Notes under the pieces: generated by a model
The model's database searches: none
Told to the model about the DNA's origin: nothing
What the model saw: only the letters and a program-made list of their open reading frames with translations
Shown: positions 1 to 5,386 of the stretch, piece after piece
How the letters are laid out: each line of letters begins with the position of its first letter
How positions within the stretch are numbered: position 1 is the stretch's first letter
Sequence record: MN266305
Source: Shigella phage SGF3
DNA: 5,386 nucleotides
Reading direction: 5' to 3' (one strand)
Position numbers and translations under genes: made by a program

Positions 1-269
1 ATGCGTCCAAGAAGTTCAAGATTGCTGAGGGTCAATGGTATCGCTATGCACCGTCTTACGTTTCTCCTGCATATCACCTCCTTGAAGGCTTCCCATTTAT
101 TCAGGAACCGCCTTCTGGTGATTTGCAAGAACGTGTTCTTATTCGCCATCATGACTATGACCAGTGTTTCCAGTCTGTTCAGTTGCTGCAGTGGAATAGC
201 CAGGTGAAATTTAATGTGACCGTTTATCGCAATCTGCCGACTACTCGTGATTCAATCATGACTTCGTGA
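1..269 (+). CDS. F: Major capsid protein F, 3' portion (continues from 4372..5386 across the circular junction; first codon spans 5386,1,2; stop TGA at 267-269)
   Basis: Frame 3 translates without stops to ...GNASKKFKIAEGQWYRYAPSYVSPAYHLLEGFPFIQEPPSGDLQERVLIRHHDYDQCFQSVQLLQWNSQVKFNVTVYRNLPTTRDSIMTS*, matching the phiX174 F C-terminus as I recall it. 1015 nt + 269 nt = 1284 nt, the phiX174 F length. Confidence 0.93.
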   Translation, partial: ASKKFKIAEGQWYRYAPSYVSPAYHLLEGFPFIQEPPSGDLQERVLIRHHDYDQCFQSVQLLQWNSQVKFNVTVYRNLPTTRDSIMTS

Positions 270-300
270 TAAAAGATTGAGTGTGAGGTTGTAACGCCGA

Positions 301-328
301 AGCGGTAAAAATTTTAATTTTTGCCGCT
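301..328 (+). repeat. AT-rich imperfect inverted repeat (hairpin) in the F-G intergenic region; position matches the phiX174 primosome assembly (PriA/n') site and the TF terminator region
   Basis: agcggtaaaaatt (301-313) pairs with aatttttgccgct (316-328) with one G-T wobble; the non-coding spacer 270-379 lies between the F stop and G start. Confidence 0.6.
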
Positions 329-379
329 GAGGGGTTGACCAAGCGAAGCGCGGTAGGTTTTCTGCTTAGGAGTTTAATC

Positions 380-907
380 ATGTTTCAGACTTTTATTTCT
401 CGCCATAATTCAAACTTTTTTTCTGATAAGCTGGTTGCCACTTCTGTTACTCCAGCTTCTTTAGCACCTGTTTTACAGACACCTAAAGCTGCATCGTCAA
501 CGTTATATTTTAATCAGTTGACGGTTAATGCAGGTAATGGTGGTTTTCTCCATTGCATTCAGATGGACACATCTGTCAATGCCGCTAATCAGGTTGTTTC
601 TGTTGGTGCTGATATTGCTTTTGATGCCGACCCTAAATTTTTTGCCTGTTTGGTTCGTTTTGAGTCTGCTTCGGTTCCGACTACTCTCCCGACCGACTAT
701 GATGTTTATCCTTTAGATGGTCGCCATGATGGTGGTTATTATACTGTTAAGGATTGCGTGACCATTGACGTCCTTCCACGTGAGCCGGGCAATAATGTTT
801 ATGTTGGTTTCATGGTTTGGTCTAACTTTACCGCTACTAAATGCCGCGGATTGGTTTCGCTGAATCAGGTTATCAAAGAGATTATTTGTCTCCAGCCGCT
901 TAAGTGA
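380..907 (+). CDS. G: Major spike protein G (175 aa)
   Basis: ATG at 380 preceded by AGGAG (368-372, 7-nt spacing). Protein [19 protein letters not shown]...[10 protein letters not shown] matches phiX174 G with roughly 9 substitutions (from memory). The ORF-track start at 335 is an unsupported upstream extension. Confidence 0.93.
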
Positions 908-915
908 GGTGATTT

Positions 916-1902
916 ATGTTTGGTGCTATTGCTGGTGGTATTGCTTCCGCTCTTGCTGGTGGCGCCATGTCTAAATTGTTTGGAGGCGGTCAAAAAGCCG
1001 CCTCCGGTGGCATTCAAGGTGATGTTCTTGCTACCGATAACAATACTGTAGGCATGGGTGATGCTGGTATTAAGTCTGCTATTCAAGGTTCTAACGTTCC
1101 CAACCCTGATGAGGCCGCACCTAATTTTGTTTCTGGCGCTATGGCTAAAGCTGGTAAAGGACTTCTTGAAGGTACGTTGCAGGCTGGCACTTCTGCCGTT
1201 TCTGATAAGTTGCTTGATTTGGTTGGACTTGGTGGCAAGTCTGCCGCTGATAAAGGAAAGGATACTCGTGATTATCTTGCTGCTGCATTTCCTGAGCTTA
1301 ATGCTTGGGAGCGTGCTGGTGCTGGTGCTTCCTCTGCTGGTATGGTTGACGCCGGATTTGAGAATCAAAAAGAGCTTACTAAAATGCAACTGGACAATCA
1401 AAAAGAGATTGCCGAGATGCAAAATGAGACTCAAAAGGAGATTGCTGGCATTCAGTCGGCGACTTCACGCCAGAATACGAAAGACCAAGTATATGCACAA
1501 AATGAGATGCTTGCTTATCAACAAAAGGAGTCTACTGCTCGCGTTGCTTCTATTATGGAAAACACCAATCTTTCCAAGCAACAGCAGGTTTCTGAGATTA
1601 TGCGTCAGATGCTTATGCAAGCTCAAACGGCTGGTCAGTATTTTACCAATGACCAAATCAAAGAGATGACTCGTAAGGTCAGTGCTGAGGTTGACTTAGT
1701 TCATCAGCAAACGCAGAATCAGCGGTATGGTTCTTCTCATATTGGCGCTACTGCAAAGGATATTTCTAATGTCGTCACTGATGCTGCTTCTGGTGTGGTT
1801 GATATTTTTCATGGCATTGATAAAGCTGTTGCCGATACTTGGAACAATTTCTGGAAGGACGGTAAAGCTGATGGTATTGGCTCTAATTTGTCTAGGAAGT
1901 AA
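916..1902 (+). CDS. H: Minor spike / DNA pilot protein H (328 aa)
   Basis: ATG at 916 with GAGG at 906-909. 987 nt, the same as phiX174 H. Gly/Ala-rich N-terminus [25 protein letters not shown] and coiled-coil-like Q/E-rich middle, as in phiX174 H. Confidence 0.95.
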
Positions 1903-1911
1903 CCGTCGGGA

Positions 1912-1940
1912 TTGACACCTTTCTAATTGTATGATTTCAT
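1912..1940 (+). promoter_or_regulatory. Candidate sigma70 promoter PA for gene A: -35 TTGACA (1912-1917), 17-bp spacer, extended -10 TG-a-TTTCAT (1932-1940)
   Basis: Perfect -35 consensus in the H-A intergenic region; the -10 is a 4/6 match with an upstream TG. Position corresponds to the phiX174 PA region. The exact -10 assignment is uncertain. Confidence 0.5.
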
Positions 1941-1965
1941 GCCTCCAAATCTTGGAGGCTTTTTT
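1941..1965 (+). terminator. Stem-loop plus T6 tract (rho-independent-terminator-like, TH position) that also contains the gene A Shine-Dalgarno
   Basis: gcctccaa (1941-1948) / ttggaggc (1952-1959) form a perfect 8-bp stem with a 3-nt loop, followed by tttttt (1960-1965) and then the A start codon. GGAGG at 1954-1958 sits inside the 3' arm. Confidence 0.7.
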
Positions 1966-3507
1966 ATGGTTCGCTCTTATTACCCTTCTGAATGTCACGC
2001 TGATTATTTTGACTTTGAGCGCATTGAGGCTCTTAAGCCCGCTGTTGAGGCTTGTGGCATTTCTACCCTTTCTCAATCTCCGATGCTTGCCTTTTATAAG
2101 CAGATGGAAAACCGCATCAAGCTCTTGGAAGAGATTCTGTCATTTCGCATGCAGGGCGTTGAGTTCGATAATGGTGATATGTATGTCGACGGTCATAAGG
2201 CTGCTTCTGATGTTCGTGATGAGTTTGTATCTGTTACTGAAAAGTTAATGGATGAATTGGCACAATGTTACAACGTGCTCCCCCAACTTGATATTAATAA
2301 CACTATAGACCACCGCCCCGAAGGGGACGAAAAATGGTTTTTAGAGAACGATAAGACGGTTACGCAGTTTTGCCGTAAGCTGGCTGCTGAACGTCCTCTT
2401 AAGGATATTCGAGATGAGTATAATTACCCTAAAAAGAAAGGTATTAAGGATGAGTGTTCAAGATTGTTGGAGGCCTCCACTATGAAATCGCGTAGAGGCT
2501 TTACTATTCAACGTTTGATGAATGCAATGCGTCAGGCTCATGCTGATGGCTGGTTTATCGTTTTTGACACTCTTACGCTGGCTGATGACCGCTTAGAGGC
2601 GTTTTATGATAACCACAATGCTTTGCGTGACTATTTTCGTGATATTGGTCGTATGGTTCTTGCTGCCGAGGGTCGTAAGGCTAATGAATCACATGCCGAC
2701 TGCTATCAGTATTTTTGTGTGCCTGAGTATGGTTCAGCTAATGGCCGTCTTCATTTCCATGCGGTGCATTTTATGCGGACACTTCCTACAGGTAGCGTTG
2801 ACCCTAATTTTGGTCGTCGGGTACGCAATCGCCGCCAGTTAAATAGCTTGCAAAATACGTGGCCTTATGGTTACAGTATGCCTATCGCAGTTCGCTATAC
2901 GCAGGACGCTTTTTCACGTTCTGGATGGTTGTGGCCTGTTGATGCTAAAGGTGAGCCGCTTAAAGCTACCAGTTACATGGCTGTTGGCTTCTATGTGGCT
3001 AAATACGTTAACAAAAAGTCAGATATGGACCTTGCCGCTAAAGGTCTAGGAGCTAAAGAATGGAACAACTCACTAAAAACCAAGCTGTCGTTACTTCCCA
3101 AGAAATTATTCAGAATCCGAATGAGCCGCAACTTCGGGATGAAAATGCTCACAATGACCAACCTATCAATGGAATGCTTAATCCAGCTTACCAAGCTGGG
3201 TTACGACGCGACACCGTTCAATCAGATATTGAAGCAGAACGCAAAAAGAGAGATGAAATCGAGGCTGGCAAAAGTTACTGTAGCCGACGTTTTGGCGGCG
3301 CAACCTGTGACGACAAATCTGCTCAAATTTATGCGCGCTTCGATAAAAATGATTGGCGTGTCCAACCTGCAGAGTTTTATCGCTTCCATGACGCAGAAGT
3401 TAACACTTTCGGATATTTCTGATGAGTCGAAAAATTATCTTGATAAAGCAGGAATTACTACTGCTTGTTTACGAATTAAATCGAAGTGGACTGCTGGCGG
3501 AAAATGA
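1966..3507 (+). CDS. A: Replication initiation protein A (513 aa), HUH rolling-circle endonuclease
   Basis: ATG at 1966 after the GGAGG-containing hairpin. Protein [25 protein letters not shown]... matches phiX174 A. HUH motif in [10 protein letters not shown]; catalytic tyrosine pair in [10 protein letters not shown] (codons 343 and 347, nt 2992-2994 and 3004-3006). The ORF-track start at 1927 is an upstream extension. Confidence 0.95.
2284..2313 (+). other. Origin of (+)-strand rolling-circle replication (30-nt ori; gene A protein nick site between G2290 and A2291)
   Basis: caacttgatattaataacactatagaccac is identical to the phiX174 30-nt origin as I recall it, at the same offset (318 nt) from the A start codon. 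Confidence 0.85.
2482..3507 (+). CDS. A*: A* protein (in-frame internal initiation within gene A; 341 aa)
   Basis: In-frame ATG at 2482 ([16 protein letters not shown]...), 516 nt downstream of the A start, the same offset as phiX174 A*. Upstream GGAGG at 2469-2473. Confidence 0.7.
2848..2880 (+). promoter_or_regulatory. Possible PB promoter region upstream of gene B (inside gene A): -35-like TTGCAA (2848-2853), -10-like TACAGT (2872-2877)
   Basis: phiX174 is known to have a promoter for B inside A. The hexamers here are weak matches and my positional recall is imprecise. Confidence 0.3.
3060..3422 (+). CDS. B: Internal scaffolding protein B (120 aa), encoded entirely within gene A in a different frame
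   Basis: ATG at 3060 with AGGAG at 3048-3052. Protein [15 protein letters not shown]...[12 protein letters not shown]; the C-terminal half matches phiX174 B, the N-terminal third is more diverged. Stop TGA at 3420-3422. Confidence 0.93.
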
Positions 3508-3592
3508 GAAAATTCGACCTATCCTTGCGCAGCTCGAGAAGCTCTTACTTTGCGACCTTTCGCCATCAACTAACGATTCTGTCAAAAACTGA
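3422..3592 (+). CDS. K: Protein K (56 aa), overlapping the end of A/B and the start of C
   Basis: ATG at 3422-3424 overlaps the B stop (TGATG). Translates [56 protein letters not shown], matching phiX174 K. Below the ORF-track size cut-off. Confidence 0.85.
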
Positions 3593-3764
3593 TGCGTTGG
3601 ATGAGGAGAAGTGGCTCAATATGCTTGGCACGTTCGTTAAGGACTGGTTTAGATATGAGTCACATTTTGTTCACGGTAGAGATTCTCTTGTTGACATTTT
3701 AAAAGAGCGTGGATTACTATCTGAATCCGATGTAGTTCAACCATTAATAGGTAAAAAATCATGA
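3504..3764 (+). CDS. C: Protein C (86 aa), DNA maturation / switch from RF replication to ssDNA synthesis
   Basis: ATG at 3504 overlaps the A stop (ATGA, stop 3505-3507). Protein [86 protein letters not shown]. 261 nt, as in phiX174. Confidence 0.92.
3691..3720 (+). promoter_or_regulatory. Candidate PD promoter inside gene C: -35 TTGACA (3691-3696), 18-bp spacer, -10 TACTAT (3715-3720)
   Basis: Perfect -35 hexamer and a 4/6 -10. The predicted start near 3727-3729 corresponds to the phiX174 D-promoter start as I recall it (about nt 358 in reference numbering). Confidence 0.6.
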
Positions 3765-4219
3765 GTCAAGTTACTGAACAATCTGTACGTTTCCAAACCG
3801 CACTGGCTTCTATCAAGCTGATTCAGGCCTCTGCTGTTTTGGATTTAACCGAAGATGATTTCGATTTTCTGACGAGCAACAAAGTTTGGATTGCTACTGA
3901 CCGCTCTCGCGCTCGTCGCTGTGTAGAGGCTTGCGTTTATGGTACGCTGGACTTTGTGGGATACCCTCGCTTTCCTGCTCCTGTTGAGTTTATTGCTGCC
4001 GTCATTGCTTATTATGTTCATCCCGTCAACATTCAAACGGCCTGTCTCATCATGGAAGGCGCTGAGTTTACGGAAAACATTATTAATGGCGTCGAGCGTC
4101 CGGTTAAGGCCGCTGAGCTGTTCGCGTTTACCCTGCGTGTACGCGCAGGAAACACTGACGTTCTTACTGACGCAGAAGAGAACGTCCGCCAGAAATTACG
4201 CGCAGAAGGAGTGATGTAA
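3761..4219 (+). CDS. D: External scaffolding protein D (152 aa)
   Basis: ATG at 3761 overlaps the C stop (ATGA). Protein [34 protein letters not shown]...RQKLRAEGVM appears identical to phiX174 D (from memory). Confidence 0.96.
   Translation: MSQVTEQSVRFQTALASIKLIQASAVLDLTEDDFDFLTSNKVWIATDRSRARRCVEACVYGTLDFVGYPRFPAPVEFIAAVIAYYVHPVNIQTACLIMEGAEFTENIINGVERPVKAAELFAFTLRVRAGNTDVLTDAEENVRQKLRAEGVM
3939..4214 (+). CDS. E: Lysis protein E (91 aa), MraY inhibitor, encoded within gene D in the +1 frame
   Basis: ATG at 3939. N-terminal transmembrane segment MVRWTLWDTLAFLLLLSLLLPSLLIMFIPSTFKRPVSSWKAL is conserved with phiX174 E; the C-terminal tail differs (…KRTSARNYAQKE). 276 nt, as in phiX174. Confidence 0.92.
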   Translation: MVRWTLWDTLAFLLLLSLLLPSLLIMFIPSTFKRPVSSWKALSLRKTLLMASSVRLRPLSCSRLPCVYAQETLTFLLTQKRTSARNYAQKE

Positions 4220-4335
4220 TGTCTAAAGGTAAAAAACGTTCTGGCGCTCGCCCCGGTCGTCCGCAGCCGTTGCGAGGCACTAAAGGCAAGCGCAAAGGTG
4301 CTCGCCTTTGGTATGTAGGCGGTCAACAATTTTAA
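4219..4335 (+). CDS. J: DNA-binding / packaging protein J (38 aa, highly basic)
   Basis: ATG at 4219-4221 overlaps the D stop (TAATG), with AGGAG at 4206-4210. Translates MSKGKKRSGARPGRPQPLRGTKGKRKGARLWYVGGQQF*, matching phiX174 J. Confidence 0.9.
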   Translation: MSKGKKRSGARPGRPQPLRGTKGKRKGARLWYVGGQQF

Positions 4336-4340
4336 TTTCA

Positions 4341-4354
4341 GGGGCTTCGGCCCC
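4341..4354 (+). terminator. J-F intergenic GC stem with UUCG tetraloop (GGGGC-UUCG-GCCCC); TJ terminator / mRNA-stabilising hairpin position
   Basis: ggggc ttcg gcccc is a perfect 5-bp GC stem with a UUCG loop, 17 nt upstream of the F start, followed by the GAGGA Shine-Dalgarno at 4361-4365. Confidence 0.7.
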
Positions 4355-4371
4355 TTACTTGAGGATAAATT

Positions 4372-5386
4372 ATGTCTAATGTTCAAACTGGCGCAGAGCG
4401 CATGCCGCATGACCTTTCTCACCTCGGTTTCCTTGCTGGTCAGATTGGTCGTCTTATTACCATTTCAACTACTCCGGTTATCGCTGGCGACTCCTTCGAA
4501 ATGGACGCCGTGGGCGCTCTCCGTCTTTCTCCATTGCGTCGCGGCCTTGCTATTGACTCTACCGTAGACATTTTTACTTTTTATGTCCCTCATCGTCATG
4601 TTTATGGTGAGCAGTGGATTAAGTTTATGAAAGATGGCGTTAATGCCGCTCCGCTCCCGACCGTTAACACTACTGGTTATATTGACCATGCCGCTTTTCT
4701 TGGCACGATTAACCCTGATACCAATAAAATTCCTAAGCATTTGTTTCAGGGTTATCTGAATATCTATAACAACTACTTTAAAGCGCCGTGGATGCCTGAC
4801 CGTACTGAGGCTAACCCTAATCAGCTTAACGAAGATGATGCTCGTTATGGCTTCCGCTGCTGCCATCTCAAAAACATTTGGACTGCTCCGCTTCCTCCAG
4901 AGACTGAGCTTTCTCGCCAAATGACAACTTCTACCACGTCTATTGACATTATGGGTCTGCAAGCTGCTTATGCTAATTTGCATACTGACCAAGAACGTGA
5001 TTATTTCATGCAGCGTTACCGTGATGTTATTTCTTCATTTGGAGGTAAAACGTCTTATGACGCTGACAACCGTCCTTTACTTGTCATGCGCTCTAATTTC
5101 TGGGCATCTGGCTATGATGTTGATGGAACTGACCAAACGTCGTTAGGCCAGTTTTCTGGTCGTGTTCAACAGACCTATAAACATTCTGTGCCGCGTTTCT
5201 TTGTTCCTGAGCATGGCACTATGTTTACTCTCGCGCTGGTTCGCTTCCCGCCTACAGCGACTAAAGAGATTCAGTACCTCAATGCTAAAGGTGCTTTGAC
5301 TTATACCGATATTGCTGGCGACCCTGCCTTGTATGGCAATTTGCCTCCGCGTGAAATTTCTATGAAAGATGTTTTCCGTTCCGGTA
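4372..5386 (+). CDS. F: Major capsid protein F, 5' portion (338 codons plus 1 nt; continues at 1..269 across the circular junction; full length 427 aa)
   Basis: ATG at 4372 with GAGGA at 4361-4365. MSNVQTGAERMPHDLSHLGFLAGQIGRLITISTTPVIAGDSFEMDAVGALRLSP... runs open to the window end and matches phiX174 F apart from a few substitutions. Confidence 0.95.
   Translation, partial: MSNVQTGAERMPHDLSHLGFLAGQIGRLITISTTPVIAGDSFEMDAVGALRLSPLRRGLAIDSTVDIFTFYVPHRHVYGEQWIKFMKDGVNAAPLPTVNTTGYIDHAAFLGTINPDTNKIPKHLFQGYLNIYNNYFKAPWMPDRTEANPNQLNEDDARYGFRCCHLKNIWTAPLPPETELSRQMTTSTTSIDIMGLQAAYANLHTDQERDYFMQRYRDVISSFGGKTSYDADNRPLLVMRSNFWASGYDVDGTDQTSLGQFSGRVQQTYKHSVPRFFVPEHGTMFTLALVRFPPTATKEIQYLNAKGALTYTDIAGDPALYGNLPPREISMKDVFRSG

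Follow-up and report, generated by a model that had tools for sequence, protein, structure and literature searches.

The window, i.e., the whole stretch of 5386 nt that was analyzed, carries the 11 genes of the phiX174-like phages on one strand, nested or overlapping in the standard order (Table 1), and all of its 10 distinct proteins passed the Pfam gathering scores, in every case for microvirus families. As the first-pass annotation had stated, gene order and overlaps are those of phiX174: the 11 genes are intact, lie at homologous coordinates and share identical overlaps (TGATG between B and K, ATGA between A and C and between C and D, and TAATG between D and J). No loss-of-function changes were found in the essential genes. 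Position 1 of the window corresponds to phiX174 position 2016, and any phiX174 coordinate is converted to the window by adding 3371, modulo 5386. The cut that opens the sequence falls within gene F, which runs off the end of the window and, as had been proposed, resumes in frame at its start; the joined ORF has 1284 nt (427 codons and no internal stop), the length of F in phiX174 (1001-2284). The best match of its product among solved structures was chain F of 9K3M (phage PJNS001), followed by the phiX174 capsid entries 1AL0 and 2BPA. The protein encoded by gene A has the motifs HFH (residue 263) and YVAKY (residues 343 to 347), gene K does not differ from phiX174 at a single nucleotide, gene D has 23 nucleotide differences with no amino acid change, and protein E has Pro21 in its N-terminal membrane helix. 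The base composition (A 24.2%, T 31.0%, G 23.3%, and C 21.5%) is T-rich, like that of the phiX174 viral strand. Neither tRNA genes (ARAGORN) nor Rfam matches at gathering thresholds were detected in the window.

Table 1. Genes and other sequence features, numbered from the first position of the window
Feature	Position	Strand	Remarks
Gene F, major capsid protein, 3' part (269 nt)	1..269	+	Stop codon TGA at 267-269; continues the frame of 4372-5386 over the junction
F-G intergenic region	270..379	+	Strong hairpin; differs from phiX174 at only 1 nt
Gene G, major spike protein, 175 aa	380..907	+	Pfam Phage_G, 394 bits
Gene H, minor spike/DNA pilot protein, 328 aa	916..1902	+	Pfam Microvir_H, 712 bits
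H-A intergenic region	1903..1965	+	Hairpin at 1941-1959, then TTTTTT, directly before the gene A ATG
Gene A, rolling-circle replication initiator, HUH endonuclease, 513 aa	1966..3507	+	Pfam Phage_GPA, 207 bits
Origin of viral-strand synthesis, CAACTTGATATTAATAACACTATAGACCAC	2284..2313	+	30 nt identical to phiX174 4299-4328; inside gene A
Gene A*	2482..3507	+	In-frame internal ATG homologous to phiX174 4497; open to the TGA of A
Gene B, internal scaffolding protein, 120 aa	3060..3422	+	Other frame within A; Pfam Phage_B, 167 bits
Gene K, 56 aa	3422..3592	+	Overlaps the 3' end of A and the 5' end of C; Pfam Protein_K, 140 bits
Gene C, switch to ssDNA synthesis/packaging, 86 aa	3504..3764	+	Pfam Phage_C, 170 bits
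Sigma-70 promoter-like site, TTGACA-18-TACTAT	3691..3720	+	10 of 12 consensus matches
Gene D, external scaffolding protein, 152 aa	3761..4219	+	Pfam gpD, 326 bits
Gene E, lysis protein, MraY inhibitor, 91 aa	3939..4214	+	Nested in D; Pfam Microvir_lysis, 77.8 bits
Gene J, DNA-binding/packaging protein, 38 aa	4219..4335	+	Pfam Microvir_J, 60.9 bits
Gene F, major capsid protein, 5' part (1015 nt)	4372..5386	+	ATG at 4372, no stops; Pfam Phage_F, 569.9 bits

Replication origin, intergenic regions and life cycle

The replication origin annotated in NC_001422 at 4306 corresponds to window position 2291, and the gpA nick is expected at G|A between 2290 and 2291. Folded as DNA, the F-G hairpin reaches -17.1 kcal/mol (z = -3.74) with a 12-bp stem (GCGGTAAAAATT/AATTTTTGCCGC); by analogy with phiX174, where this region carries the terminator of F and the site at which the PriA (n') primosome assembles to start complementary-strand synthesis, it would serve both functions. 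The H-A region, with a terminator-like hairpin of 8 pairs and 5 nt of difference from phiX174, sits where the latter has the H terminator/PA region, and the transcription start annotated at 3962 in NC_001422 falls at window position 1947. The promoter-like site lies at the position of the phiX174 PD promoter (phiX 320-349) and presumably corresponds to it. A generic promoter and terminator scan gave no more sites in the window than in shuffled sequence, and only the two sites coinciding with known phiX174 signals were used from it.

It should be noted that sequence, gene set, motifs, circular contiguity and relatedness were read directly, while the life cycle is drawn from knowledge of phiX174. 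By analogy, the ssDNA circle would be converted into the duplex replicative form via the host primosome at the F-G intergenic hairpin, and gpA, using Tyr343 and Tyr347 of its HUH endonuclease, would nick the 30-nt origin in its own gene and start rolling-circle replication. The C protein would switch synthesis to packaging into procapsids (made of F, G, and H with the scaffolds B and D), J would condense the DNA, and E is predicted to block MraY and so bring about cell lysis.

Circularity and the cut point

The window had been taken for a complete, permuted circular phage genome rather than a chromosomal region, and the behavior of its ends bears this out. They adjoin in every relative, and phiX174 aligns as one continuous HSP over the end-to-start junction of the doubled window. 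Two Logan contigs from independent public read assemblies, ERR14098658_836 (5416 nt, exact terminal overlap of 30 nt, 3 mismatches to the window) and SRR13447425_61861 (5412 nt, exact terminal overlap of 26 nt, 2 mismatches), both reduce to circles of 5386 nt, with break points elsewhere, and read across the cut point; both encode exactly the A and H proteins of the window. The length is that of exactly one unit genome without extra sequence, and the expected lack of host flanks or cargo was confirmed, the ORFs beyond the phiX174 set having no family match. Signs of an integrated or temperate microvirus (host flanks, integration module, attachment sites) were not found, and none of 5,426 complete E. 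coli genomes contained a match to the window. It is almost certain, from the sequence comparisons, that the window is a complete, unit-length, natural genome of a phiX174-like microvirus (Sinsheimervirus, PJNS001/WA4 group), given as the viral (+) strand and opened arbitrarily in F. None of the results speaks against this reading. The consequence is mainly one of bookkeeping, i.e., the window is best handled as an entire phage genome rather than a chromosomal region, with its features read against the phiX174 map.

The terminal base (5386) is an A, where 10 of the 10 genomes compared (8 GenBank records and the 2 Logan contigs) have a G, and it is the sole base that separates the window from both near-identical Logan circles. 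For these reasons, the A is probably a mistake at the end of the contig, where a G belongs. As written, the codon at the junction is A|AT (Asn339 of F), and all the relatives have GAT (Asp). A 61-nt query across the junction matched PJNS001 alone in the phage collection (60/61), which says nothing about the terminal base of other strains, since their SNPs near the junction block megablast seeding. Exact-pattern scans for a 31-mer spanning the junction (R at the variable base; IMG/VR) and for a 41-mer specific to the window (GTDB genome contigs, contigs of JGI metagenomes, and IMG/VR) gave no match, so the window's own record is absent from these three collections. A search by accession found no paper on runs ERR14098658 and SRR13447425.

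Relatives and laboratory derivatives of phiX174

Among phage records, 161 span 80% or more of the window, and every one of these is phiX-like. After rotation, alignments of 5386 columns without gaps, which confirmed the reported equality in length with phiX174, gave identities of 99.39% (PJNS001), 97.07% (WA4), 95.67% (S13), and 95.49% (NC_001422), so that the drop to far below ca. 90% identity to phiX174 with a different gene order, which the first-pass annotation had named as evidence against its reading, did not occur. The ca. 5.4-kb circular genome, the HUH initiator with its pair of catalytic tyrosines and the location of the 30-nt origin within gene A are features of the phiX174-like group (Bullavirinae; in the 2026 taxonomy, Eubullaviridae, genus Sinsheimervirus), and both the external scaffold D and the separate major spike G, which gokushoviruses lack, are present. 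The ICTV species threshold is ca. 95% or more genome-wide nucleotide identity. By nucleotide identity, the genome is a species-level relative of phiX174 and would fall within Sinsheimervirus phiX174, with a borderline value against the type genome. GenBank taxonomy places WA4, MED1, and ID34 within this species, the only one named in the genus. The genome type is ordinary and already well known, not novel.

The closest relative, PJNS001 (PQ479934; cryo-EM structure 9K3M; PMC12328618), is also 5386 nt long and differs by 33 substitutions. Its proteins G, J, K, and C are identical to those of the window, F, H, D, and E differ by one residue each, and there are six amino acid changes in A and four in B. 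PJNS001 was isolated on rfaL-deficient Salmonella ATCC14028 (PMC12328618). Between the window and PJNS001, only 1 residue of F, none of G, and 1 of H differs, so the host is probably a rough-LPS Salmonella or E. coli. The window also adds a near-identical relative to a phage with an available capsid structure and receptor data. The GenBank record of PJNS001 has only 7 annotated CDS. Another phage, PJNS002, was rejected as a match for the window by its 5486 bp and its 26-residue J protein (PMC12328618). The next group, at 96 to 97% identity, comprises WA4 (DQ079893), the wild isolates of the ID, NC, and WA series, MED1, and Salmonella phage alphaalpha, with 158 to 192 substitutions (over 5386 positions, 192 for MED1 and 186 for ID34); they share with the window its 11 genes, their coordinates and the species-level group.

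Both phiX174 and S13 agree with the window in length, gene order and all overlaps. The 243 substitutions from NC_001422 (193 transitions and 50 transversions) leave the origin and the K, D, and J proteins identical and fall overwhelmingly at third codon positions in A, D, F, G, H, and J (for first, second and third positions, 9/2/60 in F and 0/3/26 in H). In the nested genes B and E, they fall on other codon positions, and these proteins are only 89% and 90% identical, respectively, because substitutions that are silent in A and D change amino acids when read in the nested frames. Read from codon positions, this pattern bears the mark of purifying selection on a functional genome with overlapping genes.

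The equal length of 5386 nt and the equal architecture are also what would be expected if the window were the Illumina PhiX control (laboratory phiX174) carried along as an assembly contaminant. Such contamination is common, as exemplified by six 5386-bp “plasmids” in PLSDB (from Vibrio, Cellulomonas, Edwardsiella, and E. coli) that are ca. 95.5% identical to the window; of these, two were retrieved, and their only departures from NC_001422 are at five sites (587, 833, 2731, 2811, and 3133), where the control type has the signature alleles 587A, 833A, 2731G, 2811T, and 3133T. However, the window differs from the control-type genome at 242 sites and has just three of the five alleles, its differences are mainly synonymous, as expected of long natural divergence, and the genomes closest to it come from wild isolates (PJNS001, WA4, alphaalpha, and ID34). 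The alignment thus rules out the spike-in that the first-pass annotation had suggested checking for, and we give it practically no chance. The window is a genuine environmental strain and should not be filtered as spike-in.

A descendant of phiX174 from an experimental-evolution line is hardly conceivable either. Hundreds of evolved phiX174 genomes have been deposited in GenBank, including the HM753xxx series (host E. coli or Salmonella), but these records stand, like their ancestor, at ca. 95.6% to the window. As far as is known, evolved lines carry from a few to some tens of substitutions relative to phiX174, mostly amino acid changing, whereas the 243 changes found here are mainly synonymous, at third positions, and spread across all the genes. 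Moreover, two unrelated public runs hold near-identical genomes.

Differences from PJNS001 in genes A and B

The differences from PJNS001 are not evenly distributed. Within window positions 2229 to 3260, in genes A and B, we found 23 of the 33 (binomial P = 4e-10), and the remaining 4354 nt have 10. Between 2200 and 3300, MED1 (98.4%), ID34 (98.1%), and SP14 (98.1%) are all closer to the window than PJNS001 (97.9%), and in the A/B segment, the distance between the window and PJNS001 (ca. 2%) equals that of either to MED1, SP14, or WA4. Both the clustering and the closer similarity to other strains could also derive from the assembly of two co-occurring phiX-like strains into a chimera, but the same A/B alleles appear in two independent assemblies of different runs, whose 2 to 3 mismatches to the window include none in A/B, and this explanation seems very unlikely to us. 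The mosaic must therefore belong to the lineage (or to PJNS001) and not to the assembly.

The clustering suggests a recombinant replication module. We rather favor, with some reservation, a scenario in which the segment from ca. 2229 to 3260 (the interior of A plus B) of either the window lineage or PJNS001 was recombined in from an unsampled Sinsheimervirus, with the structural module remaining near-clonal. If so, phiX174-like phages of rough Salmonella or E. coli would recently have exchanged a module in nature. Recombination in wild microvirid coliphages was reportedly described by Rokyta et al. in 2006, and the A/B signal, which agrees with that work, is not surprising.

Circularity, relatives and the cut point

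The first-pass annotation described a complete circular genome of phiX174 length, linearised inside gene F. After rotation, the 5386 nt of the window aligned without gaps over exactly 5386 columns with PJNS001 (a Salmonella phage, PQ479934, the nearest isolate), WA4, S13 and phiX174 AP100 (EF380009), at identities of 99.39%, 97.07%, 95.67% and 95.58%, respectively, which bears out the length. Against the phiX174 reference (NC_001422) there were 243 mismatches (95.49% identity). When the window was doubled, phiX174 matched it as a single HSP (3372 to 8757), so that window position 1 corresponds to phiX174 position 2016 and the two ends are contiguous in phiX174, as had been proposed. By megablast, 570 of 50,697 phage records matched the window, 161 of them covering at least 80% of it, and every record among the best matches listed was phiX-like.

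An exact-protein look-up among Logan assemblies of public runs, using the gpA and gpH of the window as queries, allowed us to recover two contigs carrying both: ERR14098658_836 (5416 nt, exact terminal overlap of 30 nt) and SRR13447425_61861 (5412 nt, 26 nt), with 3 and 2 mismatches to the window. Both collapse to 5386-nt circles, are broken 37 and 1084 nt from the window start and read straight through its junction, which supports a circular genome. Near-identical circles in two public runs also place this lineage in at least two other samples. An integrated element could be rejected, as the window contains no flanking DNA and no match to it was found in complete E. coli genomes; together with the Logan circles and every testable defining feature of phiX174-like microviruses, all present here, this upholds a complete, circularly permuted phage genome rather than a chromosomal region. 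Judging by its 95.5 to 97.1% identity to recognised members, it belongs to Sinsheimervirus phiX174, the sole named species of the genus. It is an ordinary example of an already known kind: the virus species is known, the genome is complete, and a published isolate is 99.4% identical to it. The T-rich composition (A 24.2, T 31.0, G 23.3, C 21.5 percent) is that of the viral strand.

The ATG of a 68-aa ORF (1-207, +), out of frame inside F and open in all relatives, is the exact window start; the cut point is otherwise arbitrary and coincides neither with the GenBank convention nor with that of either Logan contig. The sole position differing from both Logan circles is 5386, A in the window and G in all ten compared genomes, i.e., PJNS001, WA4, S13, phiX174, MED1, ID34, SP14, alphaalpha and the two 99.95% identical circles. 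Since the chance of one private change falling on a terminal base is about 2/5386, this A probably arose through an error at the contig end or during circularisation. Its effect is to replace Asp (GAT) by Asn (AAT) at F codon 339.

Gene content, signals and predicted biology

The + strand ORFs included reading frames of phiX174 sizes, and all 11 phiX174 genes were intact, with the characteristic overlaps TGATG (B/K), ATGA (A/C and C/D) and TAATG (D/J), so that gene order and overlaps are indeed those of phiX174. Gene F runs open for 1015 nt from its ATG to the 3' end and resumes in frame at position 1 as far as a TGA (267-269), 1284 nt without an internal stop, exactly as first described.

Features of the window; each gene is intact and homologous in coordinates to phiX174
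Feature	Position	Strand	Remark
Gene G	380-907	+	
Antisense ORF, 189 aa	865-1434	-	opposite H
Gene H	916-1902	+	
Hairpin and T-run	1941-1959		directly upstream of gene A
Gene A	1966-3507	+	
30-nt origin	2284-2313		identical to phiX174 4299-4328; annotated nick position 4306 falls at 2291
Gene A*	2482-3507	+	
Gene B	3060-3422	+	
Gene K	3422-3592	+	
Gene C	3504-3764	+	
Candidate promoter	3691-3720		TTGACA-18-TACTAT; PD promoter position
Gene D	3761-4219	+	
Gene E	3939-4214	+	
Gene J	4219-4335	+	
Gene F	4372-5386 + 1-269	+	
Antisense ORF, 175 aa	4465-4992	-	opposite F

All ten distinct proteins passed the Pfam gathering thresholds (Phage_GPA, Phage_B, Protein_K, Phage_C, gpD, Microvir_lysis, Microvir_J, Phage_F, Phage_G and Microvir_H). 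The HUH motif of gpA (HFH at residue 263) and both of its catalytic tyrosines (YVAKY, 343-347) are retained, as is Pro21 of protein E. The intergenic regions are nearly invariant relative to phiX174, with 1 nt changed in each of J-F and F-G, 5 nt in H-A and none in G-H. The hairpin obtained on folding the F-G spacer as DNA is a strong one (-17.1 kcal/mol, z = -3.74); in phiX174 this spacer carries the F terminator and the site of PriA primosome assembly. No tRNAs or Rfam families were found in the window. By homology, replication, assembly and lysis would follow the mechanisms of phiX174.

The antisense strand of phiX174 is not transcribed. The 175-aa antisense ORF is open in 11 of 11 compared genomes and the 189-aa one in 10 of 11 (SP14 has one stop), weak evidence at a divergence of 5% or less, and both are most likely non-coding.

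PJNS001 came from wastewater, was isolated on rfaL-deficient Salmonella ATCC14028 and lost infectivity when rfaJ was deleted in addition; its capsid structure is 9K3M (PMC12328618). Among solved structures, it was also the one that the window F protein matched best. The two phages differ by one residue in F, none in G and one in H, and the F difference is the suspect terminal base, so the same receptor dependence would be expected. The PJNS001 record (PQ479934.1) annotates only 7 CDS, omitting A*, B, K and E, all intact in the window at homologous positions in a gapless alignment.

Divergence and a probable mosaic A/B segment

Changes from NC_001422 (193 transitions, 50 transversions) fall mostly at third codon positions in the "outer" genes (first/second/third: A 9/6/51, D 3/0/21, F 9/2/60, H 0/3/26, J 0/0/6). 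The nested genes are hit at other positions (B 11/3/4, E 0/9/2), hence only 89 to 90% protein identity for B and E, with D, J and K at 100%. This pattern reflects purifying selection on an overlapping-gene genome, one that works and has diverged in nature, and not a laboratory artefact.

PJNS001 differs from the window at 33 positions, and 23 of these fall in 2229-3260, a segment of the interior of gene A and of gene B (binomial p = 4e-10 for this span, and 1e-6 when gene A is taken as a unit defined beforehand). In this segment PJNS001 shows 6 to 9 mismatches per 400-nt window, the same as MED1, SP14, WA4 and ID34; outside it, PJNS001 shows 0 to 3 and the others mostly far more, up to about 30. 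A search with 2200-3300 ranked MED1 first (98.4%), then ID34 and SP14 (98.1% each) and PJNS001 (97.9%). A generally fast-evolving gene A was rejected, WA4 having 23 mismatches in 1101 nt of the gene versus 135 in the rest of the genome, and assembly errors were ruled out because both Logan contigs reproduce the A/B alleles. The simplest reading of these alignments is recombination with an unsampled relative, in the lineage of the window or of PJNS001, which suggests that 2229-3260 is a recombinant replication/scaffold module.

Sequencing controls and misfiled records

The question of spike-in contamination was settled in the negative: the window differs at 242 sites from an Illumina-control-type genome and carries only 3 of its 5 alleles. 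In the plasmid collection, six 5386-bp "plasmids" (Vibrio, Cellulomonas, Edwardsiella, E. coli) matched the window at about 95.5%; these PLSDB/RefSeq entries (NZ_AP024892.1, NZ_AP026443.1, NZ_AP028091.1, NZ_OR345925.1, NZ_AP024868.1 and NZ_AP024880.1) are phiX174. The first two differ from NC_001422 at only five sites (587, 833, 2731, 2811 and 3133), the Illumina control variants, which marks the entries as spike-in contamination deposited under the name of plasmids. The SP14 record (PP501405.1) has 5513 nt, i.e., 5386 + 127; no exact terminal repeat was found in it, and the 127-nt block, extra relative to all other genomes, lies at alignment columns 507-633 within gene D and looks like assembly redundancy. 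Its taxonomy, Caudoviricetes although the phage is a phiX-like microvirus, looks like a mis-filing.
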